From a virus (lineage: Duplodnaviria; Heunggongvirae; Uroviricota; Caudoviricetes): a DNA stretch of 42,470 bases. This document shows, in pieces, positions 20,166-39,615 of this stretch. Location: IMG/VR virus record IMGVR_UViG_2909288124_000001; one strand, 5' to 3'. A program made the position numbers and the translations under genes. The first letter of the stretch is position 1, and each line of letters begins with the position of its first letter. Below the pieces are notes generated by a model. That model was not told the origin of the DNA. It made no database searches and was given only the letters and a program-made list of their open reading frames with translations.

Positions 20166-20379
20166 TTTGCTGTCCCGCGTTATGTTGTCGGAGACAGTTT
20201 GTGAGAAATGCAGGCCCGGCGATTTTAATCTGCTTTAGAAAACATCAGGGGAGAAGGACAGGGAAAGCAATGCGGTGAACCGGAGGCGGTTATAAAACAG
20301 AGGCTGTAAAGCCTTTATAAAGGTAATACAGCCCCTCATTCGCTGGCAATGATAAATCACCCGCCTGAAGAGAGAAAAC

Positions 20380-20838: not shown

Positions 20839-20840
20839 TG

Positions 20841-25587: not shown

Positions 25588-25913
25588 TATTGACCTCCGG
25601 TATTGCGGTACTGCTGTACCACTTCCAGTTTGTTATAAAGCGCGTCCAGTTTGGCCTCAATGACTGTCTGGCCACGGATATAATCCTCTCGACGGACATA
25701 ATTCAGCGGTAAATCCGCTTTAAATCGCATAAATTCTTTTTCCAGCTCGCCCCAGTTGGAGGCGGATTGTTGCAGGGCCTGTTCAAGGGAGGCGAATCGT
25801 GCCGCCTGGCGTTCTTCTGTTTTACTGAACAACCATTTGGCGAGCCCTCCCACAAACCCCATGAAGGTGAGCAGAAAACTCACCACCGTCCAGAATTCAA
25901 CCTGCAGTGTCAT
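25587..25913 (-). CDS. Small membrane protein with coiled-coil tail (Mu gp25-like; lysis-associated?)
   Basis: 108 aa; N-terminal TM segment FWTVVSFLLTFMGFVGGLAKWLF. Confidence 0.45.
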   Translation of the reverse strand: MTLQVEFWTVVSFLLTFMGFVGGLAKWLFSKTEERQAARFASLEQALQQSASNWGELEKEFMRFKADLPLNYVRREDYIRGQTVIEAKLDALYNKLEVVQQYRNTGGQ

Positions 25914-26560
25914 TTCTGTAATCCTTCCCGTTCATCCAGTAACGCGTTTATCTGGTTCCGCCAGCGACGACATTGTCCTGCGTTGTCGATGATGTTGGCG
26001 AGAACGTCACGCTGGGAGACACCCGAATCGCGTAACCGGGTGTCAGTGGTTTCAGGTTGCCCGGTCGCTGTGCCAGAGCGGGTGCCAGCGGCGGCAACTG
26101 AGTCTGAATGACCGGTGTCGACGGATGCGTTGTCATATCCGAGTGCGGCGTTGTACTGGCGCACGAAACCGCGAGTAAACACGCACTCAATGGGATGGCT
26201 CTTACCTTTTTCATCAATCCAGCGCTGTGTGACATCGTTAATTTGCCCCTGTAGTTGTTTATTCCGGCTCTCCAGTTGAGCAATCTGCTCAAGATAACCG
26301 GCTTCAGCCCGCTGCCCGGCGGCCACCTGCTCCTGATACCGTCTGGCCCAGGCCCGCAGCGCAGCATTCTCAAGCGTTGCCTGCTCCGTTTTGTACGCGT
26401 CAAATGCTGACTGCAACTGACTGAGCGCGGTATCACCGTCACGCTTTGCAGAGTCATGACCACTTCTGTATCCCATGGCATACAGGCCGACCAGAAAGGC
26501 ATTGATAAGAATGGCCAGCAGAATGCCGCGCCACGGCAGCTTTTTAACCAGATGCCACAC
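25910..26560 (-). CDS. i-spanin (Rz-like inner-membrane spanin)
   Basis: Likely GTG start at 26560 with GGAGG RBS; N-terminal TM (WRGILLAILINAFLVGLYAM) then long coiled coil; contains embedded +1-frame lipoprotein ORF. Confidence 0.65.
   Translation of the reverse strand: MWHLVKKLPWRGILLAILINAFLVGLYAMGYRSGHDSAKRDGDTALSQLQSAFDAYKTEQATLENAALRAWARRYQEQVAAGQRAEAGYLEQIAQLESRNKQLQGQINDVTQRWIDEKGKSHPIECVFTRGFVRQYNAALGYDNASVDTGHSDSVAAAGTRSGTATGQPETTDTRLRDSGVSQRDVLANIIDNAGQCRRWRNQINALLDEREGLQK
25948..26214 (-). CDS. o-spanin (Rz1-like outer-membrane lipoprotein) embedded in the i-spanin gene
   Basis: ATG at 26214; MKKVRAIPLSACLLAVSCASTTP... signal peptide with lipobox-like Cys, Pro-rich mature region (PPLAPALAQRPGNLKPLTPG). 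Confidence 0.6.
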   Translation of the reverse strand: MKKVRAIPLSACLLAVSCASTTPHSDMTTHPSTPVIQTQLPPLAPALAQRPGNLKPLTPGYAIRVSPSVTFSPTSSTTQDNVVAGGTR

Positions 26561-27284
26561 AACTGCTGCCTCCCCATGTGAGATATCGCGGTGCCAGTTC
26601 GCGCAGGATGCGCTGCGGATAATGGCGGTTCTCCCGCCAGCTGGCCGCATTGCGTCCGGCATTCACCGTGGCGACATGTCCGAACCAGCGGGTGCTGTCC
26701 AGACCTTTCTGTGATGCAAGCCGCCTGTCCCGTTGTACCCAGCCCAGACCACCGTTATAGCCCGACAGTGTCATGGCCATACGCTCGCAGTCACTGGCGG
26801 CGCTGACACGCTGCCACAGCCAGCGGTCATAGCTGACCAGCGCCCGGATAGCCCATGCCGGATTAAACGGCTCACGACTGCTCAGCATCGGTATCAACTG
26901 GCTTATCCAGTCGGCAGTGGCAGGCATGAACTGCGCCAGTCCCTGAGCGCCAGCCGGCGAGATCGCATCAGGTCGCCAGCCGCTTTCCTGATGCAGTTGC
27001 GCGGCGAAATCGGCCACCGGCGCAGACAGTCCCCATTCAAGCCGGGCATTACGGATCACATCATCGCGATACTGCAGCGCAGCCTGCGGAGGTTGTGCTG
27101 CGCATGCCTGGCTAAAAAAGCCGCCACACCAGAGCAACATTGCGACAAAGAATACCCATGCCATATGAACCAGAAAGGTCCCGGCGCGGACTGACAGGCG
27201 TTCGGTTCTGATGAAGACCCGAAAGGCTTCGAAAGCCAGTTTCAGGGACATGCATACAATCCAGGTGATCTGCGGCCAGTTCAT
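26544..27284 (-). CDS. Endolysin, lytic transglycosylase (SLT domain) with N-terminal signal-anchor-like segment
   Basis: Motif LHQESGWRPDAISPAGAQGLAQFMPATA (catalytic Glu-Ser plus GLxQ); hydrophobic MAWVFFVAMLLWCGGFFSQA before the catalytic domain; start codon coupled to holin stop (TAATCATG). Confidence 0.8.
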   Translation of the reverse strand: MNWPQITWIVCMSLKLAFEAFRVFIRTERLSVRAGTFLVHMAWVFFVAMLLWCGGFFSQACAAQPPQAALQYRDDVIRNARLEWGLSAPVADFAAQLHQESGWRPDAISPAGAQGLAQFMPATADWISQLIPMLSSREPFNPAWAIRALVSYDRWLWQRVSAASDCERMAMTLSGYNGGLGWVQRDRRLASQKGLDSTRWFGHVATVNAGRNAASWRENRHYPQRILRELAPRYLTWGGSSCVASG

Positions 27285-27286
27285 GA

Positions 27287-27637
27287 TTAAAGCCCCATCG
27301 CAACAGCCAGGCAGACCGCTGCAACAATCAGTGCACGGCGGATTAACGCAGCAGAAAACACCAGGTGAAGGCCGGTCTGTACCGGGAAACGCCCTTCAGC
27401 CATCAGCCTGTCGTCATGTTTCAGGTACTGACCGGGACGGGCTTTGGGGAAGAGCGAACGGTCAAGCCAGTAACCCAGCACTGCTGCCAGCGTGATGAGT
27501 GCCAGCTTGTAGATCACAACAGGCAGCTGCTGTGGTGAGACCAGAGCGATGGTGCCCAGCAACAGCACTGAGGTCAGCAGCCAGCCGCTGAGGCGAGGTT
27601 TTTTAACAGGGGGAATGAATTTTTTCAGGTTTTTCAT
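27287..27637 (-). CDS. Holin-like membrane protein
   Basis: ATG at 27637 with GAGGAG RBS; about 116 aa with 2-3 hydrophobic segments; first gene of lysis cassette. Confidence 0.5.
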   Translation of the reverse strand: MKNLKKFIPPVKKPRLSGWLLTSVLLLGTIALVSPQQLPVVIYKLALITLAAVLGYWLDRSLFPKARPGQYLKHDDRLMAEGRFPVQTGLHLVFSAALIRRALIVAAVCLAVAMGL

Positions 27638-27751
27638 GTGTGTCTCCTCGTTTGGTGGAGACAGCATCACAAATGTGGCGGGATACGGATTTTAAACAGC
27701 GTTAATAGTGAAGATGTAAACGTGCACTGCATGATGACTTTGAAAGAACGA

Positions 27752-27779
27752 CCAGCCCGGTACCCGAACACCGGGCTGG
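27752..27779 (-). terminator. GC-rich stem-loop (10-bp perfect stem CCAGCCCGGT/ACCGGGCTGG), putative minus-strand intrinsic terminator insulating the late lysis operon
   Basis: Perfect inverted repeat with 8-nt loop; on the minus strand followed by UCGUUCUUUC; lies between dam (plus) and holin (minus). Confidence 0.3.
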
Positions 27780-27884
27780 CCATCGCCCCACAGGAATGCG
27801 CTGTGAGCCGACCGAGGTTCAGTCAGTCTCGCGAGACCAGACTAGCCTGCCATATTTTTTATAATTGTAAAAGGCTTACAGATT

Positions 27885-28655
27885 ATGAAAATGCAGACAT
27901 TACCCATCGTTCCATGGATTGGTGGCAAACGCCGCCTTGCAAAACACATCCTGCCGCTGTTTCCGGCGCATGAATGTTATGTGGAGCCGTTTTGTGGGGC
28001 AGCAGCGCTCTATTTTCTTAAGGTACCCGGCAAGATCGAAGTCATTAATGATATCAACGGTGAACTGGTGAACCTGTATCGGGTAGTAAAACATCATCTG
28101 GAAGAATTTGTGCGCCAGTTCAAATGGGCGCTGGTCAGCCGGCAGATCTACAAATGGCTGCAGATCACCCCGGAAGAAACACTGACGGATATCCAGCGTG
28201 CAGCACGGTTCTACTACCTTCAGAAGCAGGCGTTTGGAGGCAAGGTGGCGGAGCACAGCTTTGGTACCTCCACCATATCCCCGCCACGCTTCAACCTGCT
28301 GCGTATTGAAGAAGAACTGTCAGCGGCACACCTGCGGCTTTCCAGAACGGTCATAGAACACATGGACTGGCAACAGTGCATAGAACGATATGATCGCCCG
28401 CATACGTTGTTCTACTGTGACCCTCCATACTGGGGAACGGAAGGTTATGGTGTGGAGTTCGGACTAGAAAATTATGATCATATGGCAGATTTAGCACGCA
28501 GGATCAAAGGGAAGATGATTATATCGGTGAACGATATCCCGGAAATGCGGCAGGCATTCAACGGTCTAAATATTCAGTCGGTTGATATCAGCTACAACCT
28601 CAAGATCACTGGCAAATCCAGTTGCAAGAAGGAACTCATTATCCTCAACTTTTGA
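27885..28655 (+). CDS. DNA adenine methyltransferase (Dam family, N6-adenine)
   Basis: 256 aa; motif I FCGAAALYF and motif IV DPPY (FYCDPPYWG); N-terminal WIGGKRRL typical of Dam-family enzymes. Confidence 0.85.
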   Translation: MKMQTLPIVPWIGGKRRLAKHILPLFPAHECYVEPFCGAAALYFLKVPGKIEVINDINGELVNLYRVVKHHLEEFVRQFKWALVSRQIYKWLQITPEETLTDIQRAARFYYLQKQAFGGKVAEHSFGTSTISPPRFNLLRIEEELSAAHLRLSRTVIEHMDWQQCIERYDRPHTLFYCDPPYWGTEGYGVEFGLENYDHMADLARRIKGKMIISVNDIPEMRQAFNGLNIQSVDISYNLKITGKSSCKKELIILNF

Positions 28656-29850
28656 CCGAATAGTAAGACTTCATGCAGTGAATCAAGTACTGCATGAAGT
28701 CAAGGGCTGGTTTTGTGTACCAAAAATAAACAGTGATAGCGGTAATAATTCCCATAACTAGAACACCACGTATAATCCAGAACGTACGTTTCTGCGTGTC
28801 TAGTCGCGCAGAAATACTGCTAAATACACCAGCCACGTCATCTTTAATGAAGGAATATTCCTTATTAATCTGTTTTTCTTTGTATTCAATTTCTTCGCCT
28901 AAGGCCTTTATAGATTGCATCTGGTTCGAAAGTGCCAGCCAGATTAACGTTGCAGCAAAAATGCATCCCAGAAGAATTATTGTGTTTGTTATCCCTTGGC
29001 CTGACCATTTCGTAGCCACTTTGAATTGGGTAGCTACGATAACAGAGGCAACAGGAATGCCAAGTATATGGTTCTGGATATCTGAAAACGCTTTGTGGAT
29101 TTTACCCATTTCTTCGACTTTTGCAGCACGCAGTTGATCCATTACTTTGTCATAAGAGAATCCAGAAGAGTAGATACGATACCCTTTCAGAAACTTTTCA
29201 TGCAGACGCTGAATATTGTCCAGTAAATAAGCGAATACTAGAGGTGAATCAATTCCATCACTAACTGCTTGGATACTTTCAATCAGAATATCTAGCTTCT
29301 GATCCTTATGGGTATCATCATTGAAACAAGCTATAAGGTTATCAAGATACTCTCTTTGCAAATTTTGTACATTTTCTGCAGCGAAGTGCGGTAATAGCTT
29401 GATAACTTCTTTTTTCAGAAAAACTAACTGACAAGTTGAGTTATCAAAGTAGGCCGCGGCCTCTTTTAGCAGGTTAACGAACTCGAGAATCTTCCGGTAG
29501 TTGCTGATGAAAACGGGGATATCTTCATCATCATTACGAAACTTTGTTTCTAGGATGAAGTAATTAGCTGGCTCAAGGCACTGATGCTTTGGAGCATTTA
29601 GCAATTTTTCATGGGTGGAAAACACAAGTCCCAGTCCACTCCGTGGTGACGTCACACGTAGGATGATCGTGTTACCTGGAGCGATAGTGCCTGTATCAAT
29701 AGAAAGACCATATTCACGAGGATCATCAAGCAAAGTATCAACCAGATCACAATCGGACTGATCTAAGAGCAACAGCGAACCGACACGAAACCCCTCTTGG
29801 AATTCCATACGACGATACAGAGCTGTCAGCATCTCAAATGAAATCGCCAC
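28645..29850 (-). CDS. Hypothetical protein with soluble N-terminal domain and two C-terminal transmembrane helices (candidate effector of a defence/exclusion cassette)
   Basis: 401 aa; predicted TM segments ITNTIILLGCIFAATLIWLALS and FWIIRGVLVMGIITAITVYFWY; AT-rich; 2-bp gap to upstream gene. Confidence 0.6.
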   Translation of the reverse strand: MAISFEMLTALYRRMEFQEGFRVGSLLLLDQSDCDLVDTLLDDPREYGLSIDTGTIAPGNTIILRVTSPRSGLGLVFSTHEKLLNAPKHQCLEPANYFILETKFRNDDEDIPVFISNYRKILEFVNLLKEAAAYFDNSTCQLVFLKKEVIKLLPHFAAENVQNLQREYLDNLIACFNDDTHKDQKLDILIESIQAVSDGIDSPLVFAYLLDNIQRLHEKFLKGYRIYSSGFSYDKVMDQLRAAKVEEMGKIHKAFSDIQNHILGIPVASVIVATQFKVATKWSGQGITNTIILLGCIFAATLIWLALSNQMQSIKALGEEIEYKEKQINKEYSFIKDDVAGVFSSISARLDTQKRTFWIIRGVLVMGIITAITVYFWYTKPALDFMQYLIHCMKSYYSVKS

Positions 29851-29852
29851 GA

Positions 29853-30860
29853 TTAAACCTCAGTCATCCACATTTCCCTAAATTCTTCAGGTACATTACG
29901 TAGGGTGATAATATTTGTTTCCGGATCATAATCAATATAGCCTTCAGTTTTCCCTTCCCGGTCAAACTTAAGTTCCCAATATTTAGACTTGCCTTTAAAA
30001 GATACCAGAGCCCGAATGACTCGACCATCAGGAACGAAGCCATCCGATAACTCCAACTCTTCAGCAGCAAGTTTACCAGATAACTCCTCGGGAGCCTGGG
30101 GCCAAATGGCATTAACAAGGGTTTCAAGACTAAGTGGTTCACCAGCCTTACTTAGTGCATGTAAGTGTTCAAACGCACTCTTAAGAAATGCATCTTTTTC
30201 AGCGCCGTCAAGTCCTTTTTCTGCCGCAAATGCTTTTAAAACGTCACGTAACTTTTCAGACTCTCGTTTGGCGATTAAGACATCATTACAGCCGAGGAAC
30301 TGTTTAAAATAGTTTGAAACATTACCTTGCCCCTTAAGAAAACTGATATAGCGCTCTGCGCCACTTTCCCACGCGGTTAAGTCAATGCGCCCAGCCATAC
30401 GCAGCTTAGCAATATCAAGATAGGTACTATCTTGGATGTTAAAATCATCTGTGACAGTGGATCCAATGGTAGCGCTTACAATAGCTATCAACAGGTGTTC
30501 ATTGTGTCCTATCACGATATTTGCAAAAAGAACATAACCACCAGTAGCCATGTTTTCTCGCTGAGAACGTTCCGTCAGGTGATGCATCATTCGGCAGGAA
30601 CTTTGGTAGAAATCATCAACACCTTCGAGAAAGTCCCCAGCCATTCGTTCCATAGGATAGTTATCCGTATCGCCTTCAAAATAGCCATAACCTTTACCTG
30701 TGCGTCCTGCATATTTTGCACAAATATCGTTTATAAGGCGCTGGGAGGCTTCAGTAACTAGACCTTCTTCAGGACTCAATCTCTCAGAAGCGTCTCCATT
30801 TTGTTGTTTGTCTAAAATGTGAACTACAACGTGTTTAACTTCAATGGTCTGCTCAGACAT
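29853..30860 (-). CDS. NA37 (NdpA/YejK)-like nucleoid-associated-protein homologue (candidate sensor of a defence/exclusion cassette)
   Basis: 335 aa (same length as E. coli YejK); stretches GGYVLF, GRIDLTAWES, RYISFLKG, FLG resemble YejK as recalled from memory; ATG with AAGGTGGA RBS; directly downstream of repressor gene. Confidence 0.55.
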   Translation of the reverse strand: MSEQTIEVKHVVVHILDKQQNGDASERLSPEEGLVTEASQRLINDICAKYAGRTGKGYGYFEGDTDNYPMERMAGDFLEGVDDFYQSSCRMMHHLTERSQRENMATGGYVLFANIVIGHNEHLLIAIVSATIGSTVTDDFNIQDSTYLDIAKLRMAGRIDLTAWESGAERYISFLKGQGNVSNYFKQFLGCNDVLIAKRESEKLRDVLKAFAAEKGLDGAEKDAFLKSAFEHLHALSKAGEPLSLETLVNAIWPQAPEELSGKLAAEELELSDGFVPDGRVIRALVSFKGKSKYWELKFDREGKTEGYIDYDPETNIITLRNVPEEFREMWMTEV

Positions 30861-30930
30861 TAGCTATCCACCTTATTTTTTATTGCTTAATGGCAAATAA
30901 TTTCTGCTATATGTTCTCGTTAGGAACACA

Positions 30931-31338
30931 TTAACCCACATTTTTTAACCGCTCAATCGTTGCGGATAATTCCTTCAGTTGTTTTTCCATCTCAATCACA
31001 CGCTGTTTTTCTTCAGCGCCTCGCATGAGATCTCGCCGAACCTCAGGATCTAACTGGTTTAGAAGTTCAAGCATTTTAAGGTCTGACGGGCTGAATTGAT
31101 GTTGTGTTGGTACAGCAACAATTTCTTTAGATGGAATATGTTCTTTACCGGTAAGTAGCCAATCGATCGATACACCCAAATGGGTACTTAGCGCAACAAG
31201 AGCCTCTGCGTTTGGTTCTCTCTCTCCACGCAAATAGTTTTGAAGTGAGCGATATGGAATTTTTGATAAGTCAGATAATGCCTTTATTGTCATGCCATTA
31301 GCATCCATCACTTCACGCAATCTCTCTTTTGTACTCAT
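30931..31338 (-). CDS. Prophage repressor (HTH XRE-type, c-like)
   Basis: From ATG at 31338: helix-turn-helix region ...MTIKALSDLSKIPYRSLQNYLRGEREP... plus C-terminal coiled coil; divergent from early operon. Confidence 0.7.
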   Translation of the reverse strand: MSTKERLREVMDANGMTIKALSDLSKIPYRSLQNYLRGEREPNAEALVALSTHLGVSIDWLLTGKEHIPSKEIVAVPTQHQFSPSDLKMLELLNQLDPEVRRDLMRGAEEKQRVIEMEKQLKELSATIERLKNVG

Positions 31339-31354
31339 TTGAACATATCTCAAT

Positions 31355-31382
31355 TTGACACACTCATTTGGGTGTGTACAAT
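31355..31382 (+). promoter_or_regulatory. Putative early promoter (TTGACA-16-TACAAT) with embedded inverted repeat ACACAC-N8-GTGTGT (candidate operator)
   Basis: Near-consensus sigma70 hexamers 45 bp upstream of ner-like start and 17 bp from the repressor start codon. Confidence 0.4.
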
Positions 31383-31426
31383 AGACCCAATAGAGTACAT
31401 CATAACCTAACAGGAACACGGTGCAT

Positions 31427-31651
31427 ATGAACAAACAACAAGTTCGGGCACGGCTGGTTGAACGAGGCAGTAGCTTGCGCCAGTTCGCGCTTAACGCGGG
31501 CTATGAACCACGAACAGTCACCCAGGCAGTCAGTCGCTGGGCTGGTAAAAGTGAACTACCTCGCGGTCGTTTGACTTATCGGATTTTGCGAGATCTATCG
31601 GTTGCAATAGGTAAAGAAGTTACCCCCGGTATCCTTAAGGAGGCGTCATGA
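31427..31651 (+). CDS. ner: Ner-like DNA-binding protein
   Basis: 74 aa from ATG at 31427; pattern ...SLRQFALNAGYEPRTVTQAVSRW... parallels Mu Ner (...LSALSRQFGYAPTTLANALERHW...) as recalled; first gene of early operon. Confidence 0.6.
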   Translation: MNKQQVRARLVERGSSLRQFALNAGYEPRTVTQAVSRWAGKSELPRGRLTYRILRDLSVAIGKEVTPGILKEAS

Positions 31652-31956
31652 ATAAACCAAATACATCAAGCTCAGGTACCCGTATTTTGCGCGTTCTTAA
31701 GGCCTTACGTGGCCACGCTTTGAACGGTGTTTCTAACGGGGAACTAGCGGTTGCACTGCACGAATCACCGGCAAACATCAACCGGGCACTTAACACGCTC
31801 ATTGAAGAAGGGTTGGCTCTGAAACTAGAAAACGGGCGTTTCGCACCAGGCATCCAGTTGCTGCAGATCGCCATGGCCCACAGTAACGAGATGGCACGTG
31901 CACAGGATCGCATTAACGAAATCAACCAACGTGTTATTTCAGGTAGTCGTTTGTAA
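31648..31956 (+). CDS. Hypothetical early protein (possible winged-helix DNA-binding)
   Basis: 102 aa ORF overlapping ner-like stop. Confidence 0.45.
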   Translation: MNKPNTSSSGTRILRVLKALRGHALNGVSNGELAVALHESPANINRALNTLIEEGLALKLENGRFAPGIQLLQIAMAHSNEMARAQDRINEINQRVISGSRL

Positions 31957-31966
31957 GGAGTAATCA

Positions 31967-32878
31967 ATGGGACGCACCAAATCACCGGTTAGCACTGAAC
32001 TGAACGTCGAGGTACCGCTGTCGGATGATCTCAATGTCAGTCTAAACGCCATGACACAGCATCGCATGGAAATCATGCAACAGTTCGGCGATGGTCTGCC
32101 CTATGAGCGCGATCGTGTTGTCCATGAGGCACGCTTTTATATGGCACAGAGCGCTGAGGCCATGCTGGAGGCAGGTAAGCGGCTGATAATCCTTAAGGAA
32201 AATGAACCACACGGGGAGTTTATAAAGATTCTTGAAAGTGAGTTGGGGCTGGCATACCGGACATCTGTGAGAATGATGCAAGCATCGACAAAATACTTAT
32301 CCCCGGCGCTGAAACCAAATGTGCCAACGTTGGCACATTTGGGAAAAGCCAAACTTTTCGAATTAATGACAGAAGACGACGAAGAGCTTGCCGAACTGGC
32401 CGACGGCGGCACAGTTGCCGGCCTGACGCTTGACGACGTTGATCGCATGTCAGTACGTGAATTGCGTCAGGCCCTGCGCGAAGCGCGCGAAACCAACGCA
32501 GCACAACAGCGCGTACTCGCTGACAAAAATGAAAAAATAGACTCACTCTCCACCAGACTGGAGAAGAAATCCCGTATTCAGCCGCCTGAGCCTGATGAAG
32601 AGGTTAAGAAGCTGCGGGCGGAAGTGACAGCATTAGCGGTTGAGGCGGAATCTGCTATCGCCGTTCGACTGTCCAGCGCTTTTGAGACGCTGTGCGCATA
32701 TTGTGCTGAAAACATGATTGATACCCCCAGAGACTTCATGGCAGGCCTGGTCTGTCAACTGGAAAGCACAGCGCGTAGCCTGCGCTCCACATTTGACCTG
32801 CCGGATGAGCCAACAGGCAATGCCGCGCCTTCATGGCTGACTGAGCCGACGCCACAGATTAACGGGCTGGAGGCATAA
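31967..32878 (+). CDS. Hypothetical early protein
   Basis: 303 aa ORF between ner-like and transposase genes; no recognised motif. Confidence 0.5.
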   Translation: MGRTKSPVSTELNVEVPLSDDLNVSLNAMTQHRMEIMQQFGDGLPYERDRVVHEARFYMAQSAEAMLEAGKRLIILKENEPHGEFIKILESELGLAYRTSVRMMQASTKYLSPALKPNVPTLAHLGKAKLFELMTEDDEELAELADGGTVAGLTLDDVDRMSVRELRQALREARETNAAQQRVLADKNEKIDSLSTRLEKKSRIQPPEPDEEVKKLRAEVTALAVEAESAIAVRLSSAFETLCAYCAENMIDTPRDFMAGLVCQLESTARSLRSTFDLPDEPTGNAAPSWLTEPTPQINGLEA

Positions 32879-32881
32879 CCA

Positions 32882-34651
32882 ATGAATGCTGCCCTGACTG
32901 AACGACTGGTTTATGTCGCCCGCGCGGCACGTGACGCGGGGCATGGTAAACGCGGTGCAATATACGACGCTGCCTGTGCTGAACTTGGCATGTCCCGCGC
33001 CACTCTGCTGCGCAGGCTGAAGGAGGTCTCTGTGACTGATAAACGCAAAAAACGCGCTGATGCCGGACGCAGCGCCCTGACCCGCGACGAAGCCGCGCTG
33101 ATATCTGCCACACTGCGTGAGGCCACCCGCAAGAACGGTAAGCGCCTCTATTCCATCGCAGATGCAGTGGAAACCCTGCGGGCTAACGGCTTTATCACCG
33201 CAGGCAGAACAGATGAAACCACCGGTGAGTTTTTCCCGTTGTCTGAAGATGCCATCAGCCGTGCTCTGCGTAACTATGGCCTGCACCCGGAACAACTGGA
33301 TGCTCCTGCACCGCATACCGAAGTGGCCAGTCTGCACCCCAATCATGTCTGGCAGATTGACGCCTCACTCTGCACGCTTTACTACCTGAGCAATGGACAT
33401 AAAGGGCTGCAGGTGATGGACAGCGCGAAGTTCTACAAGAACAAGCCCGCTAACCTTGCCCGTATCGCCAGTGACCGCGTGTGGAGTTACGAGATTACCG
33501 ACCATGCCAGCGGCTGGATTTACGTTGAGTATGTGACGGGCGCGGAATCAGGTGAGAACCTGTGTTCTGTGCTTATCAACGCCATGCAGGAGCGTGGCGG
33601 CGCAGACGTGCTGCACGGCGTGCCAAAAATACTCTATCTCGACCCCGGCTCGGCAAACACCGCGGGTATGACGAAAAACATGTGCCGCTCACTGGGCATC
33701 GACCTGATAGCGCACAAGCCGCATAACGCCCGCGCCACCGGACAGGTGGAAAAGGCGCGAGACATTATCGAACGCAAGCTGGAGCCGGGTCTGAAGTTCC
33801 GGCCGGTTCACAGTCTGGAAGAACTCAACGCGCTGGCCGCGAAATGGCGCAGCCACTTTAACGCCACGGCTGTTCACAGCCGCCACGGTAAAACCCGCAC
33901 GGATATCTGGCTGAAGATTACTGCTGAGCAGCTGAAAAAAGCGCCTTCCGTTGAGGTATGTCATGAACTGGCTGTGGCGGCACCAGAACTCCGCAAAGTC
34001 ACGCCAAAACTTCGTGTCTCGTTCCGGGGCACTGAATTTGACGTATCAACGGTACCGGGCGTACTGGTTGGTGAAAAACTGATGATTACCCGTAACCCAT
34101 GGCGCAGCGATGTGGCACAGGTGGTTCTGACCGGTGAGGACGGCCACGAGACGTTCTTCCTGGTCGAAGAGGTCAGAAAGAACGAGTTTGGCTTTGCTGA
34201 AGGCGCGGCGGTATTTGGCGAAAGTTACAAAGCCCTGCCGGAAACCCCGGCACAGATGGCGGCAAAAGAAACCGAAGCGCTGGTTACCGGTACAGACAAC
34301 GCCGCAGATGCAGCCGCCGCACGCAAGGCGAAGGCGCTGCCGTTCGGCGGGCGGCTTGACCCGTATAAACATATCGACGACACCACACTTCCGGCCTATA
34401 TGCCGAAGCGTGGTCAGGCCTCTGACGTACGCGGGCCGCGCACTGAACAACGTCCCATGACTCATGTGGAGGCCGCGAAAGCCCTGCGCGATAAGTTCAG
34501 CGCCGACGGCCTTACCTGGACGCCGGAACATTACCGCCAGTTAACGGCACAGTACCCGGACGGCGTACCGGAAGCCGCACTGGATGAAGTCATGGCCACG
34601 CTGACCACACCGGCCCGCAGCAGTGTTATCAGCATTGTTAACGGCAACTGA
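32882..34651 (+). CDS. Phage DDE transposase (Mu A functional equivalent; integrase-core type)
   Basis: 589 aa; candidate catalytic residues in HVWQIDASL, YLDPGSANT and a downstream Glu; N-terminal HTH-like region; followed by AAA+ ATPase gene. Confidence 0.8.
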   Translation: MNAALTERLVYVARAARDAGHGKRGAIYDAACAELGMSRATLLRRLKEVSVTDKRKKRADAGRSALTRDEAALISATLREATRKNGKRLYSIADAVETLRANGFITAGRTDETTGEFFPLSEDAISRALRNYGLHPEQLDAPAPHTEVASLHPNHVWQIDASLCTLYYLSNGHKGLQVMDSAKFYKNKPANLARIASDRVWSYEITDHASGWIYVEYVTGAESGENLCSVLINAMQERGGADVLHGVPKILYLDPGSANTAGMTKNMCRSLGIDLIAHKPHNARATGQVEKARDIIERKLEPGLKFRPVHSLEELNALAAKWRSHFNATAVHSRHGKTRTDIWLKITAEQLKKAPSVEVCHELAVAAPELRKVTPKLRVSFRGTEFDVSTVPGVLVGEKLMITRNPWRSDVAQVVLTGEDGHETFFLVEEVRKNEFGFAEGAAVFGESYKALPETPAQMAAKETEALVTGTDNAADAAAARKAKALPFGGRLDPYKHIDDTTLPAYMPKRGQASDVRGPRTEQRPMTHVEAAKALRDKFSADGLTWTPEHYRQLTAQYPDGVPEAALDEVMATLTTPARSSVISIVNGN

Positions 34652-34661
34652 GGAGGGAAAC

Positions 34662-35828
34662 ATGCTGGTACTGAAGCAGCAACTGAAAGAGGCCCGTATT
34701 CCACAGGCGGTGGTGGCGAGAGCTGTCGATGTTTCTGAGGCCACGCTGGCCCAGATTGTGAATCATAACGCGTGGCCCCGCACCAGCCCCGGAGAAGTGC
34801 GCCGGCGTCTTGCGTCCTGGCTGGAAAGTCAGGGGATTGATACAGCGAAGAGTTTTGATGCTGTACAGGGCGCGGCCACGCCCCGTACAGCGGGTACCAC
34901 AGATAAAACGAGCCTCAGTGAGGAAGAGAATATGTTACTCAAAAAACAGGTGTTATTTCCAGCAACCAAAAAAGCGTTTGGTCTTTTCCGTGACCCGTTC
35001 GCCGACGAAGCCATGCAGGGTTCTGATGATGTGTTCACCACCCCGGACATTCGCTACGTGCGTGAGGCGTTGTACCAGACAGCCCGTCATGGTGGGTTTA
35101 TGGCCGTCATCGGTGAGTCCGGTGCGGGTAAATCCACGCTGCGCCGTGACCTGACTGAACGTATCAACCGCGAGAATGCGCCGGTGATTGTTATCGAGCC
35201 ATACATCATCGCTATGGAAGACAACGATGTGAAAGGGAAAACCCTGAAGGCAGCAGCGATTGCCGAAGCCATTATCAGTACCATCGCACCACTGGAAAGC
35301 ATCAGACGCAGTCAGGACGCCCGCTTTCGCCAGCTGCATCGCGTCCTGAAAGACAGCAGCCAGGCGGGGTTCAGCCACGTTCTGGTGATTGAGGAGGCCC
35401 ACAGTCTGCCCATTCCGACACTGAAACACCTCAAACGCTTTTTTGAGCTGGAGTCCGGTTTCAAAAAACTGCTGTCCATCGTGCTGATTGGCCAGCCGGA
35501 ACTGGCGACAAAACTGTCTGAACGCAATATGGAAGTCCGTGAAGTCGTTCAGCGCTGTGAGGTGGTCGAACTTCTGCCTCTGGACAATAACCTTGAAGAG
35601 TTTCTGACGTTCAAACTGCAACGGGCCGGTAAACAACTGACGGACATTATGGACGCCAGCGCAGTGGATGCCATACGTGCCCGCCTGAGCAATCCGGGAA
35701 GTCATCGTAAAAATATGGTCAGCCTGCTGTATCCGCTGGCCGTCAGTAACCTGGTAATAGCCGCCATGAATCTGGCCGCTGAAATCGGGGTTCCACAGGT
35801 CAACGCTGACGTTGTCAAAGGGGTTTAA
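34662..35828 (+). CDS. Transposition ATPase (Mu B-like AAA+ target DNA activator)
   Basis: ATG at 34662 after GAGGAGGGA RBS; Walker A GESGAGKST; Walker B-like HVLVIEEAH. Confidence 0.8.
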   Translation: MLVLKQQLKEARIPQAVVARAVDVSEATLAQIVNHNAWPRTSPGEVRRRLASWLESQGIDTAKSFDAVQGAATPRTAGTTDKTSLSEEENMLLKKQVLFPATKKAFGLFRDPFADEAMQGSDDVFTTPDIRYVREALYQTARHGGFMAVIGESGAGKSTLRRDLTERINRENAPVIVIEPYIIAMEDNDVKGKTLKAAAIAEAIISTIAPLESIRRSQDARFRQLHRVLKDSSQAGFSHVLVIEEAHSLPIPTLKHLKRFFELESGFKKLLSIVLIGQPELATKLSERNMEVREVVQRCEVVELLPLDNNLEEFLTFKLQRAGKQLTDIMDASAVDAIRARLSNPGSHRKNMVSLLYPLAVSNLVIAAMNLAAEIGVPQVNADVVKGV

Positions 35829-35830
35829 TA

Positions 35831-36100
35831 ATGAAATCCACCACAGGTATCAACCAGCAAATCAGCAAAGTGCAGTCAGCCATTATGGCGCTTAAGGCGA
35901 CGAACACGGATGTACAAAGCATCACCATCAGGGGTAACAAACCTGTCATCCGCGTTTCCCGGAGTGCGCATTGCATGCGCATGCTTGAGCAGGGAAAGGC
36001 CTGTTATCTGTATACCGGACATGACCACAGGGGATATTTCCGTCAGGGCGTTTTCGAACTGCACGGCTGTCGCGTCGTGTGGCCGGAATCTTTGTGGTAA
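35831..36100 (+). CDS. Hypothetical early protein
   Basis: 89 aa ORF immediately after B-like gene. Confidence 0.4.
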   Translation: MKSTTGINQQISKVQSAIMALKATNTDVQSITIRGNKPVIRVSRSAHCMRMLEQGKACYLYTGHDHRGYFRQGVFELHGCRVVWPESLW

Positions 36101-36127
36101 TCAGCACAACCGGAGAAATCATAAAAT

Positions 36128-36658
36128 ATGGCAAAAAGTACAAAAGGGGCAAAACGTATCAAGTCCGCAGCGGCACTCTGGGTACCGGGGACACGCGAAG
36201 AGGTCATTGAGGGCATCAGACTGCTCGGTGACGCACAACGTGAACTGGTCAGGGCTGAAACAGAAATGAATGACGCCATTGGCGATATCACCGCACGTTA
36301 TGCCCCGCTCACCGAGAGCCTGAAAAAACGCATGTCAGAACTGCAGTCCGGTATCCAGACATGGTGTGAGGCACACCGTGATGAACTGACCGGCAACGGG
36401 AAGGTGAAGTTCGCTAACCTCACCACCGGCGAGGTGCAGTGGCGAAACCGTCCGCCATCAGTCAGTATCCGTGGAGCGGATAATGTTATTGAACTACTGA
36501 GACGTCTGGGGCTTGAGCGCTTTATTCGTGTAAAAGAGGAAATAAATAAAGACGCTATCCTGAATGAAAAGGACGCCGTGAAAAATATTCCCGGTATTAC
36601 CATAAAAAGTGATATTGAGGATTTTTCAATAATTCCTTTTGAGCAGGATGTGCAGTAA
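36128..36658 (+). CDS. gam: Host-nuclease inhibitor Gam (Mu Gam family)
   Basis: 176 aa; ...ETEMNDAIGDITARYAP...WCEAHRDELTGNGKVKFANLTTGEVQWRNRPPSVSIRG...IEDFSIIPFEQ closely parallels Mu Gam as recalled. Confidence 0.85.
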   Translation: MAKSTKGAKRIKSAAALWVPGTREEVIEGIRLLGDAQRELVRAETEMNDAIGDITARYAPLTESLKKRMSELQSGIQTWCEAHRDELTGNGKVKFANLTTGEVQWRNRPPSVSIRGADNVIELLRRLGLERFIRVKEEINKDAILNEKDAVKNIPGITIKSDIEDFSIIPFEQDVQ

Positions 36659-36755
36659 ACACACCACGTTAATTATTTAATAAAAACATTTTCTTTTTTA
36701 TTCCGGCGTCAGCGCCGTGGGCTTCTGCACGCCGGAAACAGAGGAGAATTAAATT

Positions 36756-36950
36756 ATGATATTTAAATGTATTCAGTGCGAGAGGGATATAACAGCCCTG
36801 CGTTTTCACAGCGCCATCGCCGTGATGTCCGGTAAGTACCACGTACCTGCAGTACGTGTCACCCTGGTCTGTCCGTACTGCAGCCAGCATTTTTCGGCGA
36901 ACGTGCCCGTCATGGAATTCTCCCGCCCTGACAGGGAGGACGCGCAATGA
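36756..36950 (+). CDS. Small Cys-rich (zinc-ribbon-like) protein
   Basis: 64 aa with CxxC...CPYC. Confidence 0.4.
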   Translation: MIFKCIQCERDITALRFHSAIAVMSGKYHVPAVRVTLVCPYCSQHFSANVPVMEFSRPDREDAQ

Positions 36951-37219
36951 TTACCCCACAGGAAGCACGACAGCGCACCCGAACCCTTGTTGAACACTAT
37001 GTCAACGAGTGTGAATGCCGCGACCTCACCGATGTGAAGCACGTCCTGACGGCGTTAATCAGCATGGCCGCTCAGGCCATTGTGGCAACCAACGGAAAGG
37101 CGGCTGCCCTGCAGGTACTGATGAACACACTCACCCACACGGCAGAGCACGAGGTGCCGTACCGGGTGGAAACCACTGCAGAAGGCGGCCTGAACATCAC
37201 CGTCGACCGGAAACACTGA
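36947..37219 (+). CDS. Hypothetical early protein
   Basis: 90 aa ORF, overlapping stop/start with neighbours. Confidence 0.4.
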   Translation: MITPQEARQRTRTLVEHYVNECECRDLTDVKHVLTALISMAAQAIVATNGKAAALQVLMNTLTHTAEHEVPYRVETTAEGGLNITVDRKH

Positions 37220-37228
37220 GGGCGCGGC

Positions 37229-37534
37229 ATGACACGGAACACCGAACTCACCCGCACCGCCCTCTACCGTCTGGCCCTGCAGCGTTTCGGTCCGGATGCA
37301 CAGGCCCTGAAACTGACAGAAGAGGCTGCTGAACTGGCGGCCAGTGCCGCCCGCAACCTGAACGGACAGGGCAGCGAAAGTGACCTCGCGGCAGAGCTGG
37401 CAGACGTGGAAATCATGACAGAGCAGCTGCGCCTTCAGGGAATGGACCGGCTGATTGACTTCCACAAACAGAAAAAACTGGAACGCCTTGCCGCACGGCT
37501 GGGCGTCATGTACACCGGAGATACTGAACAATGA
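37229..37534 (+). CDS. Small all-alpha protein, possibly MazG-like nucleotide pyrophosphohydrolase
   Basis: 101 aa with EEAAELA...ELADVEIMTEQL acidic helix pattern; weak assignment. Confidence 0.3.
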   Translation: MTRNTELTRTALYRLALQRFGPDAQALKLTEEAAELAASAARNLNGQGSESDLAAELADVEIMTEQLRLQGMDRLIDFHKQKKLERLAARLGVMYTGDTEQ

Positions 37535-38214
37535 CAGACCAGGATAAGCACATTGAGAAACTGAAAAAGTTGCTGGCGCTGGCAGCATCCGGCAACCCGC
37601 ATGAGGCTGCTCTGGCACTGCGCCGCGCCCGTAAACTGATGGATGTTCACGGCATCACACATTCCGACATCGCCATGAGTGATATTGATGAAACCATCAG
37701 TCACTACTGGCCGACAGGCAGCCTCCGTCCGCCGCGCTACATGCTGGGCCTGATGAACATCATCCGCGAGGCATTTGGTGTTAACTCCATCATTCACCCC
37801 GGCACATATCCGGGTGTGGGGTTCTACGGCAACCGGGAACGGGCCGCACTGGCCGCGTACACCTGGGAAGTGCTGGCCCGTCAGCTGAAAAAGGCGCGTC
37901 AGCAGTATATCAGTGCACAGAACAAAAGAATAAAAACCGCCACCCGCACCAGCCGTGGAGACCAGTTTGCTGAAGGCTGGGTGCTGGCCGTTATCAGTGA
38001 AATACAGTCCTTCGCCTTGACCGATGACGAACGTGAACTGATGCAGCAGTGGCTGGAACATAAATACCCGCAGACGCAAACCACCAGGGCGCGTAAACCG
38101 GGAAGAAGCCGCAATGGCGACGCCTCGCGCTATGCGGGGTTTCGTGAAGGGCAGAACGTCAGACTGCACCGCCCGGTCAGTGGGCAGGAACAACAGAAAC
38201 TGGAGGCCAGATGA
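37531..38214 (+). CDS. Hypothetical early protein
   Basis: 227 aa; conserved-looking N-terminal motif IEKLKKLLALAASGNPHEAALALRRARKLM seen in Mu-like early regions (memory-based). Confidence 0.45.
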   Translation: MTDQDKHIEKLKKLLALAASGNPHEAALALRRARKLMDVHGITHSDIAMSDIDETISHYWPTGSLRPPRYMLGLMNIIREAFGVNSIIHPGTYPGVGFYGNRERAALAAYTWEVLARQLKKARQQYISAQNKRIKTATRTSRGDQFAEGWVLAVISEIQSFALTDDERELMQQWLEHKYPQTQTTRARKPGRSRNGDASRYAGFREGQNVRLHRPVSGQEQQKLEAR

Positions 38215-38430
38215 TTACGCTATCAGGTAAAAGCCGGAAATTAAAAGCCTGCCGAATATCTGCCAGATACCTTTTTGCCCGCGCCTTTTTTAAGAACGTC
38301 AGGCCGGGGATCACAATTGGTGTTATTGCCGGACGCGAACAGGTTGAAAAATACATGTCAGGTGCATGGTGGAATAACGACCCTGTCATTGCTGCCCGTA
38401 ATATTCATATCAGTTGGGGGGATATTCAGA

Positions 38431-38646
38431 ATGACGGCTGAATCTGTTGTATGTGCCCTGTTCTGGTATTGTTTTGTCGGTTGGTGTACTGCTGAACTGC
38501 ACCGCCGTTCAGGGTTTTATTCACGTTACAGTGGTGCCGGCTACTGGATTAGCTGGTCGGTGATGTTCCTGTGCTGGCCTGTGGCGCTTCCTTTATATGT
38601 CGATTATATCGGTGGCGCAGGTAAAAGGAGCAACGATGATGACTAA
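38431..38646 (+). CDS. Small hydrophobic protein
   Basis: 71 aa from ATG at 38431; Trp/Cys-rich hydrophobic segments. Confidence 0.3.
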   Translation: MTAESVVCALFWYCFVGWCTAELHRRSGFYSRYSGAGYWISWSVMFLCWPVALPLYVDYIGGAGKRSNDDD

Positions 38647-39088
38647 ACAACGTCTTATCCAGCTCATTAATATTGCCCGTAATGAACTGGGTATGGATGA
38701 AGACACCTACCGCCAGATGTTACAGGGGCTGACCGGTAAAGCCTCAACCAAAGGAATGGATACCACACAACTAAACTGCGTGCTGGAATCCATGAAAAGG
38801 AAAGGCTTTCGCGTTAAGCCTGCCAGAAAAGCCAGCTCCGGTTTACCGCTGGATAACCATCCGCAGTCCAGGAAAATCCGTGCGCTATGGCTTGAAATGG
38901 CTGCTGCCGGCATTGTTCGTGACCGTTCAGAAAATGCATTAGCGCGGTGGATCAAGCGGGAAACGGGCATCAGCGCCCTGCGCTGGCTCAATACTGAACA
39001 GGCAAGCAGTGTTATTGAGAAACTGAAGAAGTGGCAGCACAGAGCTGCGGGAGTAAAACATGAGCGACCTGAATCAGTTTCGAAGTAA
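38636..39088 (+). CDS. gemA: GemA-like protein (Mu gp16 family)
   Basis: ATG at 38636 with AAGGAG RBS; MMTKQRLIQLINIARNELGMDEDTYRQML... resembles Mu GemA N-terminus as recalled. Confidence 0.65.
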   Translation: MMTKQRLIQLINIARNELGMDEDTYRQMLQGLTGKASTKGMDTTQLNCVLESMKRKGFRVKPARKASSGLPLDNHPQSRKIRALWLEMAAAGIVRDRSENALARWIKRETGISALRWLNTEQASSVIEKLKKWQHRAAGVKHERPESVSK

Positions 39089-39449
39089 AGGGCCGGAACT
39101 CCTGGTGGAACTGGCACAGCATACCTCTGAGACCGTTCGCGAGATTATTGATATTGAGCCCGCAATTGCCGACCAGATTGGTCAGGCCGTCGCGAACCGC
39201 ATGATGCAGGTCTGGGGCGGGCAAAACGTTTATTTCCCGATGGGCATGGTATGGAAGGTCAGTCAGCGCGACCGGGAAATCTTCAGGGAGTTTAACGGAC
39301 GTAACCACCATGAACTGGCCCGCAAATTTGGTGTTTCGCTTCAGTGGGTCTACAGCGTGGTTAAGCGGGTAAGAAAAGAAGAACTGGATCGGATGCAGGG
39401 CAAGCTATTTGCTGATGAACCCGATGTAGATACGGAGAAAAAAGAGTAA
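39060..39449 (+). CDS. mor: Mor/C-family transcriptional activator (middle/late gene activator)
   Basis: 129 aa (same length as Mu Mor); C-terminal HTH-like ...HELARKFGVSLQWVYSVVKR...; last gene of early operon. Confidence 0.75.
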   Translation: MSDLNQFRSKGPELLVELAQHTSETVREIIDIEPAIADQIGQAVANRMMQVWGGQNVYFPMGMVWKVSQRDREIFREFNGRNHHELARKFGVSLQWVYSVVKRVRKEELDRMQGKLFADEPDVDTEKKE

Positions 39450-39609
<160 letters not shown>

Positions 39610-39615
39610 CCTTCA
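39610..39615. repeat. Target-site duplication CCTTCA, right copy
   Basis: Identical to 2644..2649. Confidence 0.6.

Follow-up and report, generated by a model that had tools for sequence, protein, structure and literature searches.

We conclude, with a probability of about 93%, that two adjacent genes in the 42,470-nucleotide stretch of DNA analysed here (the window), tnpA and tnpB, encode the transposase and the AAA+ ATPase partner of a BcepMu-like transposable prophage (genus Bcepmuvirus), which lies in E. coli and appears to be complete (Table 1). The preliminary description had held that this transposase is not MuA-like and had proposed a mosaic, in which a phage with Mu-type structural and accessory genes carries a transposition module from a different lineage. 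The first point is correct and already known. The second finds no support, because the whole prophage and its ends are of the BcepMu type; a P2-type tail combined with a Mu-type head and BcepMu-type transposition genes and ends is the standing architecture of the established genus Bcepmuvirus.

Table 1. Features of the prophage, with positions in the 42,470-nucleotide window
Feature	Position	Strand	Basis
Left copy of 6-bp target-site duplication, CCTTCA	2644..2649		Single copy in empty site LC727904
BcepMu-like transposable prophage (Bcepmuvirus) of 36,960 bp, apparently complete	2650..39609		Ends against LC727904 empty site; tblastn collinearity with BcepMu; PhiKM DNA identity
Tail-side end: terminal TGAT and two putative sites, CGCGATAAAT (2660-2669) and TGCGATAAAT (2683-2692), 23 bp apart	2650..2692	+	Layout common to both BcepMu ends
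cI/Cro-type HTH repressor, divergent from early operon	30931..31434	-	Pfam HTH_3, Phage_CI_repr; PHROGs transcriptional repressor
Small Ner-like HTH protein, first early-operon gene	31421..31651	+	phrog_8503, weak HTH_35; position as BcepMu gp16, B3 ORF17
IclR-type winged-helix regulator (BcepMu gp12-like)	31648..31956	+	Pfam HTH_IclR; 35% identity to BcepMu gp12 region
DUF3102 protein (BcepMu gp10-like)	31967..32878	+	Pfam DUF3102, phrog_1748; 41% identity to BcepMu gp10
tnpA, 589-aa DDE (rve-type) transposase; D160, D254, E290	32882..34651	+	Pfam, BLASTP, profiles, model
tnpB, 388-aa AAA+ (AAA_22, ExeA-like) ATPase with N-terminal HTH; presumed MuB/TnsC-like partner	34662..35828	+	gp08 identity, Pfam, phrog_296
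Gam, host-nuclease inhibitor protecting DNA ends	36128..36658	+	Pfam Phage_Mu_Gam E=4e-41; 63% to Mu Gam
GemA-like protein	38597..39088	+	Pfam GemA E=9e-41; 43% to BcepMu gp02, 35% to Mu GemA
Mor-family activator of middle/late transcription, last gene before prophage end	39060..39449	+	Pfam Mor E=1e-43; 54% to BcepMu gp01, 31% to Mu Mor
Mor-side end: terminal ...ATCA and two inverted putative sites, TGAGATAAAT (39590-39599) and TGAGATATTT (39567-39576)	39567..39609	-	End alignment
Right copy of 6-bp target-site duplication, CCTTCA	39610..39615		Single copy in empty site LC727904

An apparently complete prophage of the BcepMu type

The late genes (about 2.7-27.7 kb) are encoded on the minus strand and the early operon (31.4-39.4 kb) on the plus strand, and this inversion of the early operon is the BcepMu/B3 organisation (PMC5977238). 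By tblastn the whole prophage is collinear with BcepMu, through the tail, head, lysis, DUF3102, IclR-HTH, A, B, GemA and Mor genes. Matches to BcepMu in the same order were found for 31 of the 44 ORFs tested, covering tail, head, lysis and early module, whereas only 11 of the 44 match Mu and most of these match BcepMu better. The prophage DNA is 95-99% identical to that of E. coli phage PhiKM, which is filed under Bcepmuvirus, and the same backbone occurs across Enterobacterales at 80-98% identity. The BcepMu family has been described since 2004 (Summer et al., 2004, as cited in PMC2771037 and PMC2628397), and its transposase has already been described as Tn552-related rather than MuA-related, the primary accounts being taken here from PMC2771037, PMC2628397 and PMC5977238.

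These observations weigh against the proposal that a Mu-type enterobacterial phage had its A and B genes recently replaced by a BcepMu-like or Tn552-like module. Mu-type domains are present in the head genes, and Gam and a Gin-like invertase, 63% and 76% identical to their Mu counterparts, have no BcepMu match by tblastn; judged by these identities, such accessory parts look recently shared with Mu. However, the tail genes are P2-type and not Mu-type, as PMC2771037 describes for BcepMu, both prophage ends are BcepMu-type, and the gene order, the inverted early operon and the widespread backbone all speak for a BcepMu-like phage throughout, so that we consider a recent replacement very unlikely. 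Among the genes originally regarded as Mu-like, the assignment stands for Gam, GemA, Mor and the gene with the Portal_Mu domain.

TnpA and its catalytic core

The tnpA ORF has GGAGG before its ATG start and ends with a TGA stop codon. Three catalytic residues had been suggested from the translation, and they are present as D160 in WQIDAS, D254 in YLDPGSAN and E290 in GQVEK, with DD(35)E spacing. None of the three varies among 27 close relatives or among 65 diverse family members (31-75% identity), and in alignments E290 falls on the catalytic E of both foamy-virus integrase and Tn552 p480. The family itself is large, since an exhaustive HMMER search returned 1076 representative clusters (at 50% identity), 389 of them at E<=1e-30, with proteins mostly of about 560-640 aa.

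Pfam recognises only rve in TnpA (E=1e-8, 35.8 bits against a cutoff of 32.6). From N- to C-terminus, an HTH is followed by a winged helix, an RNase H-like core, a beta-barrel and a helical C-terminal region. The AlphaFold model, built on an alignment of the 65 diverse members, has a mean pLDDT of 87.5; a first model from 27 close homologues (67-94% identity) had been discarded with pLDDT below 50 across the catalytic core. The beta-barrel is modelled confidently at TnpA 369-430, and hhalign pairs it with MuA 476-577 and p480 355-410. This predicted equivalent of Mu-transpos_C is seen only in the model and the profile alignments: Pfam searches of isolated TnpA segments at E<=10 gave neither Mu-transpos_C nor the Mu HTH domains, and returned only a weak Fis-type HTH_8 match.

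Relationship of TnpA to MuA and other transposases

The statement that TnpA does not look MuA-like is confirmed. The best BLASTP match to MuA has E=0.46 over 25 residues. MuA carries the Pfam domains DDE_2 (the core; 2e-136), HTH_Tnp_Mu_1 (I-alpha/I-beta; 1e-57), HTH_Tnp_Mu_2 (I-gamma; 3e-48) and Mu-transpos_C (II-beta), and none of these four is found in TnpA by Pfam. A single-sequence PDB search with TnpA gave only marginal matches to retroviral integrases, so a profile search was needed; the 65-sequence TnpA profile returned no MuA chain among the best 60 of its 69 PDB matches (E<=1). Comparison of the A2 profile with the single MuA sequence gave an hhalign probability of 0.1%.

Family-level comparison gives a different picture. 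In hhalign, TnpA matches the MuA-family profile with a probability of 96.9% (E=1.7e-10, 361 columns), in a collinear alignment of TnpA 28-456 with MuA 124-577 that places D160 opposite D269 and D254 opposite D336, and the Mu transpososome is a significant Foldseek match to the TnpA model (E=5e-10). By profile comparison MuA is a remote homologue of the TnpA family with the same domain order. Together with the shared A-then-B order and the downstream Gam, GemA and Mor genes, this might suggest that TnpA is a true but sequence-diverged MuA orthologue and that kinship with Mu extends to the transposition module of the phage. We regard this as highly improbable given that BLASTP shows no similarity to MuA and Pfam none of the four MuA domains, that MuA 1-123, which includes the enhancer-binding I-alpha region, has no counterpart in TnpA in the hhalign alignment, and that the length of the duplication, the end sequences and TnpB all differ from those of Mu. 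TnpA is not a MuA orthologue, but the claim of a different lineage has to be qualified, as the two families are remotely homologous.

The earlier guess of a BcepMu-like or Tn552-like enzyme was well founded. TnpA is 68% identical to BcepMu gp09 (annotated 'Tn552/IS1604 rve transposase') over 581 of its 589 residues, and by tblastn it matches 69 phage records, every one with at least 80% query coverage, including PhiKM (98.8% identity), KP12 (93.7%), BcepMu and phiE255 (68-69%) and B3-like phages (50-57%); transposase A of Pseudomonas phage B3 is 57% identical over its full length. The match to Tn552 p480 is more distant (hhalign probability 98.4%, E=7.2e-15, 344 columns, TnpA 36-423; BLASTP E=5e-5 over the core). 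By hhalign, p480 matches the MuA-family profile at least as well as the TnpA family (E=2.3e-21 versus 7.2e-15, values that are not strictly comparable because the profile depths are unequal). "Tn552-related, not Mu-related" is therefore a simplification, p480 linking both families. Foldseek with the TnpA model ranked ShCAST TnsB (E=5e-18, 528 columns), IstA and Tn7 TnsB highest, and the TnpA-family profile HMM matches Tn7 TnsB at E=1.9e-5. Sequence profiles and the model thus point to Tn552 p480, TnsB of Tn7 and of CRISPR-associated transposons, IS21 IstA and retroviral integrases as the nearest non-phage relatives.

In NCBIfam, TnpA has sub-threshold matches to IS21 transposases and to IS481 (E=1.5e-18; 67 bits, the cutoff being 224), and the window is rich in IS elements. 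This could be read as an IS481-, IS21- or Tn552-like insertion sequence or transposon lying inside the prophage and unrelated to phage replication, but this reading was rejected on synteny and terminal repeat positions and deserves almost no credence. The position of A and B is conserved in BcepMu, B3, phiSHP3 and PhiKM, and the ORFs scanned include no other prophage transposase or integrase, the sole other recombinase being the Gin-like invertase. Moreover, it is the 37-kb prophage, and not the A/B pair, that is bounded by the repeated sites and TG...CA termini and flanked by the 6-bp duplication.

Prophage ends and target-site duplications

The two ends of this prophage can be aligned with the two ends of BcepMu without any shift, and in all four the sites occupy positions 11-20 and 34-43. 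The motif YGMGATAWWT occurs in the window only at the four end positions, against 0.82 occurrences expected by chance, an enrichment that is partly circular, the motif having been derived from the same ends. The end sequences are unlike Mu L1, and their TG...CA termini are of the kind that PMC2628397 presents as typical of BcepMu-related prophages with an Rve core.

An apparent 6-bp duplication had been noticed at the outset, and comparison with the empty site bears it out (Table 1). Since we found no usable published duplication length for BcepMu, B3 or Tn552 in the literature, the length was measured directly on insertions. Five prophage copies were examined, and they lie at five different loci, as in transposition and unlike site-specific integration: a group II intron ORF (the present copy), hycE, dmsC, gspL and the gadC/dgcM junction. 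Four independent E. coli insertions are flanked by 6-bp duplications, which are CCTTCA in the group II intron ORF, ATCAGC in hycE, CGATGG in dmsC and CCCAGG in gspL. One of the five copies, in strain C 237-04, has no duplication, probably as a result of secondary rearrangement. A paper on 'Tn552-II' deals with a tnpABC element whose att is 7 bp long and gives no information on duplication length.

TnpB and the early operon

TnpB is 59% identical over its full length to BcepMu gp08, an ExeA-like AAA+ ATPase, and belongs to phrog_296, 'DNA transposition protein', in PHROGs. Its start is almost certainly ATG 34662 and not the mechanically listed GTG 34623, because GGAGGG precedes the ATG, the gp08 alignment begins there, and PGAP likewise annotates 388 aa. 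MuB contains AAA_22 and Phage-MuB_C, whereas Pfam finds AAA_22 but no Phage-MuB_C in TnpB; the similarity between the two is weak and confined to the AAA+ core (hhalign probability 37%), and a TnpB profile searched against solved structures gave only generic P-loop matches.

In this phage group the DUF3102 gene lies directly upstream of tnpA, as it also does in B3 and phiSHP3, and the order HTH, IclR, DUF3102, A, B is kept in BcepMu, B3, phiSHP3 and PhiKM. It is conceivable, though on balance unlikely, that the DUF3102 and IclR-type proteins are dedicated transposition parts, for example with an end-synapsis, enhancer or regulatory function of the kind MuA gets from I-alpha, which the TnpA family lacks. 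If so, the transposition module would comprise four proteins rather than an A/B pair.

Proposed mechanism and significance

By homology, TnpA would recognise, close to each TG...CA terminus, the two putative 10-bp sites (YGMGATAWWT) that lie 23 bp apart, and bring the ends together. After nicking at the 3' CA, it would join the 3' OH ends to the target at positions staggered by 6 bp, and the 6-bp duplication would result. TnpB, loaded on DNA, may act as an ATP-dependent target selector and activator in the manner of MuB, TnsC and IstB. Lytic growth would then presumably proceed by replicative transposition, after which the Mu-type terminase and portal would package the DNA by the headful mode; PMC2771037 reports replicative transposition and variable host DNA at the virion ends for BcepMu. 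That TnpA transposes the phage and binds these sites, and that TnpB has the role given here, are predictions from homology, and the replicative mode is presumed.

The discovery value of these findings is small, given that the rve-type, Tn552-related transposase of BcepMu-type phages has, by the accounts cited above, been in the literature since 2004 and that a 98.8% identical transposase is already in GenBank, in a Bcepmuvirus. A modest refinement is offered by the place of Tn552 p480 as a link between both families and by MuA as a remote homologue with the same domain order. The tnpA gene is present in 636 of 5426 complete E. coli genomes and Mu A in 89 of 5426, which makes the BcepMu-like phage about seven times commoner than Mu. 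The PGAP labels 'integrase catalytic domain-containing protein' (tnpA) and 'ExeA family protein' (tnpB) hide a transposable phage. Wherever the phage inserts, it inactivates host genes, hycE, dmsC and gspL being examples.

Comparison with known systems

Phage Mu shares with the present phage a transposase and ATPase doing the same job in A-then-B order, remote homology from I-beta/I-gamma through II-beta, TG...CA termini, a partner ATPase with AAA_22, and downstream Gam, GemA and Mor. There is no pairwise similarity to MuA/MuB, and TnpA lacks the Mu-specific Pfam domains and I-alpha. The duplication is 6 bp here and 5 bp in Mu, and the present early operon runs opposite to the late genes. Each end has two recognisable sites here, against three in Mu (six in total; PMC2628397).

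Tn552 p480 (Staphylococcus aureus, pN315 copy) has a homologous HTH region, rve-type DDE core and beta-barrel. At 480 aa and about 22% identity, it lacks the C-terminal 150 residues of TnpA, and it matches Pfam Mu-transpos_C, which TnpA does not. Tn552 is a small transposon with a resolvase, whereas TnpA is carried by a 37-kb phage; Tn552 makes 6-7 bp duplications, and its p480 is paired with an ATP-binding protein, p271. TnpA is hence a distant relative of p480 and not a member of its group in the narrow sense. TnsB, from Tn7 and type V-K CRISPR-associated transposons, and IstA each work with an AAA+ partner (TnsC and IstB). They are 12-18% identical to TnpA, differ in end-binding repeats and target selection, and are not phage replication enzymes.

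Among phages, B3 (Beetrevirus), JBD25, JD18 and PM105 have transposases 50-57% identical to TnpA over the full length, and their early genes keep the same order in an operon that is likewise inverted (PMC5977238). The comparison with B3 concerns the early module; PMC2771037 describes B3 as a siphovirus and not a P2-type myovirus. BcepMu itself agrees in Pfam content (rve only in A, AAA_22 only in B), in neighbours (DUF3102 and IclR-HTH upstream of A, GemA and Mor at the end), in the divergent early/late layout, in TG...CA ends with two sites each, and in its P2-type tail and Mu-type head. The present phage differs in its E. coli host, in other cargo beside the immunity region, and in a Mu-like Gam and a Gin-like invertase with an invertible tail-fibre segment, both absent from BcepMu by tblastn; PMC2771037 likewise describes BcepMu as without a tail-fibre inversion system. 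Closest are PhiKM (PQ738613), Klebsiella phage KP12 (OM835952) and Phi06_2974 B (KM389306), with TnpA 98.8%, 93.7% and 93.7% identical and DNA 86-99% identical over most of the prophage; PhiKM differs in that a small additional ORF separates the DUF3102 gene from tnpA and that the variable slot near the repressor holds other genes.

TnpA is a BcepMu-type transposase

The interval 32882-35828 holds two genes in the same direction, tnpA and tnpB (Table). A mechanical ORF listing starts the second gene at GTG 34623, but the actual tnpB gene is likely to begin at ATG 34662, because the BcepMu homologue alignment to the second protein begins only there and 388-aa products are given in the PGAP annotation of other genomes. 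The catalytic residues proposed in the preliminary description were all recovered in TnpA as D160 (WQIDAS), D254 (YLDPGSAN) and E290 (GQVEK) with DD(35)E spacing, and they are invariant in alignments of 27 close homologues and 65 diverse family members. TnpB carries an N-terminal HTH, a Walker A (GESGAGKST) and a Walker B motif (LVIEEAH), both of which align with those of MuB.

The same description held that the transposase does not look MuA-like, and the HMM searches it had proposed bear this out: Pfam detects the rve integrase core alone in TnpA (E=1e-8, slightly over the curated cutoff) and none of the MuA domains DDE_2, HTH_Tnp_Mu_1, HTH_Tnp_Mu_2 and Mu-transpos_C (E 1e-15 to 1e-136 in MuA). 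BLASTP between TnpA and MuA gave chance fragments only (best E=0.46), and the NCBIfam matches, to IS481 and IS21, were both sub-threshold. A 65-sequence TnpA profile searched against all PDB sequences matched retroviral integrase cores (E ~2e-10) and Tn7 TnsB (E=1.9e-5), and MuA chains were absent from the best 60 of 69 matches at E<=1. Likewise, TnpB belongs to AAA_22 and lacks the C-terminal domain of MuB in Pfam, and BLASTP detected no similarity between TnpB and MuB. At the levels visible to simple sequence comparison, the predicted TnpA is thus not MuA-like.

The family suggested earlier, BcepMu-like or Tn552-like, proved the right one. TnpA shares 68% identity across 581 residues with gp09 of Burkholderia phage BcepMu, annotated in its record as 'Tn552/IS1604 rve transposase', and TnpB shares 59% with gp08. 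A tblastn search of 50,697 phage records returned 69 that match TnpA, none with query coverage below 80%. They comprise PhiKM of E. coli (98.8% identity; classified in Bcepmuvirus in its record), Klebsiella phage KP12 (93.7%), the BcepMu/phiE255 group (68-69%), Pseudomonas phages of the B3 type (50-57%) and a handful of remoter matches. The existence of a BcepMu-type transposase is already known.

Table. Features of the prophage, its flanks and its relatives (window positions unless stated)
Feature	Position	Strand	Details
Prophage	2650-39609		36,960 bp; starts TGAT, ends ATCA
IS-dense flank segments	1-1191, 40848-41273, 41349-42110, 42195-42470
Split maturase ORF	1767-2649 / 39608-40256	minus	RVT_1 on one side; RVT_1 + GIIM on the other
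Gin/Hin-type serine invertase with tail-fibre and tail-fibre-assembly cassettes	2728-5894		invertase 76% identical to Mu Gin (tblastn)
Dam-like methylase	27885-28655
Two-gene cargo	28645-30860	minus	GC 40-45%; between Dam-like methylase and repressor
IclR winged-helix + DUF3102 gene pair	31648-32878
Same pair, comparison phage records	L003 6485-7974; L015 7341-8586; L016 4729-5970
tnpA	32882-34651	plus	589 aa; ATG preceded by GGAGG; TGA stop
tnpB	34662-35828	plus	ATG after GGAGGG
Gam	36128-36658		63% identical to Mu Gam (tblastn)
NCTC9022 copy	in hycE		duplication ATCAGC
GN04275 copy	in dmsC		duplication CGATGG
M9682-C1 copy	in gspL		duplication CCCAGG
C 237-04 copy	NZ_CP109921 2604500-2647500		ends intact; target duplication not found

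Ends and target duplications indicate transposition

The window flanks 2113-2649 and 39608-40940 are contiguous by megablast in the Stx-phage record LC727904, and we therefore conclude that the prophage has split a group II intron reverse-transcriptase/maturase ORF by insertion; LC727904 and OR844776 hold the uninterrupted maturase sequence and so provide the exact empty site. Eight bases (caccttca) are common to both flanks, of which we count the 6-bp CCTTCA as the target-site duplication proper, because the terminal CA of the element coincides with host 'ca'. The two prophage ends and the two BcepMu ends align in register, each with TGA(A/T) followed by a YGMGATAWWT-type site at 11-20 and a second at 34-43. 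Within the window this motif has four occurrences, all of them at the prophage ends (0.82 expected), a count that speaks to specificity and is not independent discovery, as the motif was derived from the same ends. The surrounding flanks carry a Mutator/IS256-family transposase, an IS3/IS911-like fragment, an IS30-like rve transposase and an IS1 InsA-like ORF, and the prophage thus resides in an IS-rich region that is probably mobile or degraded.

We also fetched four further E. coli copies, and the 6-bp duplication suspected earlier was exact in four of the five copies, all five of which lie at different loci. These directly observed duplications and insertion sites therefore show that the copies arose by transposition, and the measured length is a valuable by-product: it is one base longer than the 5-bp stagger of Mu. 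The exception, in C 237-04, has dgcM and a truncated glycoside-hydrolase gene as its neighbours, which suggests a deletion or rearrangement beside the prophage of a kind that transposable phages can cause; this locus has probably been secondarily rearranged.

By homology, TnpA would occupy both sites of each end, bring the ends into synapsis, introduce nicks at the 3' CA and join the strands to target DNA with a 6-bp stagger, and transposition would be replicative. TnpB would serve as the ATP-dependent target-DNA partner, in a role like that of MuB, TnsC or IstB.

The backbone is that of an established genus

The preliminary description proposed a mosaic of Mu-type structural and accessory genes with a foreign transposition module. 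When we compared 44 prophage ORFs with the whole BcepMu and Mu genomes by tblastn, however, the prophage was collinear with BcepMu across the tail (sheath 76%, tube 67%, baseplate 48-63% identity), head (TerL 63%, portal 58%, F 60%), lysis genes and early module. Matches to Mu comprised TerL (49%), F (48%), portal (26%), G (29%), GemA (35%), Mor (31%), a tail-fibre fragment, Gam and the invertase, and none of the other ORFs among the 44 matched the Mu genome. Mu-like character holds for Gam, GemA and Mor and for the portal, which carries Portal_Mu, but not for the tail, whose Pfam domains are P2-type (Phage_tube FII, Phage_P2_GpU, Tail_P2_I, Baseplate_J, GPW_gp25, Phage_GPD). Given this collinearity, the P2-type tail and Portal_Mu, the combination represents the settled layout of a known genus and not a new mosaic.

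Only Gam and the Gin/invertible tail-fibre segment, both absent from BcepMu, look from these comparisons to have been exchanged with Mu-like coliphages. Prophage Gam had no counterpart in the BcepMu genome by tblastn and looks like a module common to enterobacterial Mu-like phages, outside the BcepMu backbone. At its tail end the prophage has tail-fibre and tail-fibre-assembly cassettes, in opposite orientations, beside the invertase; a system for tail-fibre inversion is reportedly missing from BcepMu (PMC2771037), and a Mu-like switch of host range seems to have been acquired in the E. coli lineage.

Of the two products of the low-GC cargo, one is a 335-aa nucleoid-associated protein of NdpA/YejK type (Pfam NA37, E=1e-80) and the other, of 401 aa, matches PADLOC KwaA weakly. 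Against the NCBIfam 'anti-phage protein' models DS1_1 and DS1_2 the pair scores far under the cutoff (E=1.4e-17 and 3e-21), and the cargo is probably a defence cassette carried by the prophage and distantly akin to the DS-1 system; in the other E. coli copies that were inspected, different genes occupy this slot. Directly upstream of tnpA, the window prophage, B3 and phiSHP3 share an IclR-type winged-helix gene and a ~300-aa DUF3102 gene, whereas in BcepMu the small gene gp11 lies between the two. The DUF3102 protein may act as an accessory factor in transposition or in regulation.

Frequency and relationship to MuA and Tn552

Of 5426 complete E. coli genomes, 636 carry BcepMu-type tnpA, at up to three copies each, and 89 carry Mu A. 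More widely, the TnpA family gave 2324 matches among the candidates scored in a word-indexed search, in which a single 90% cluster gathers 5173 sequences from across Enterobacterales, and 1076 clusters at 50% identity in an exhaustive search. RefSeq/PGAP names tnpA and tnpB just 'integrase catalytic domain-containing protein' and 'ExeA family protein', and so conceals a transposable phage that is far more common than Mu in E. coli.

In an AlphaFold model of TnpA from the 65-sequence alignment (mean pLDDT 87.5), residues 1-50 and 68-140 form two helical DNA-binding domains at the N terminus, followed by an RNase H-like core (about 150-345) and a beta-barrel (369-430). Helices span 456-482, and beyond them a disordered linker leads to a C-terminal domain of three helices (528-575). 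The TnpA-family profile matched Tn552 p480 (pN315) over residues 36-423, comprising HTH, core and beta-barrel (probability 98.4%, E=7.2e-15). Against a single MuA sequence the probability was 0.1%; against a six-member MuA-family profile it was 96.9% (E=1.7e-10, 361 columns, 28-456 against MuA 124-577), with D160 and D254 aligned to D269 and D336 and the third acidic residue locally shifted. The MuA-family profile in turn matched p480 at 99.4% (E=2.3e-21, 423 columns), so that p480 fits it at least as well as it fits the TnpA family, although the profiles are of unequal depth and the comparison of E-values is not strict. On these profile alignments MuA is a remote homologue of the TnpA family and, since p480 matches both profiles, Tn552 forms the bridge between the two phage transposase families. 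The customary label 'Tn552-related, not Mu-related' understates the single superfamily to which all three belong.
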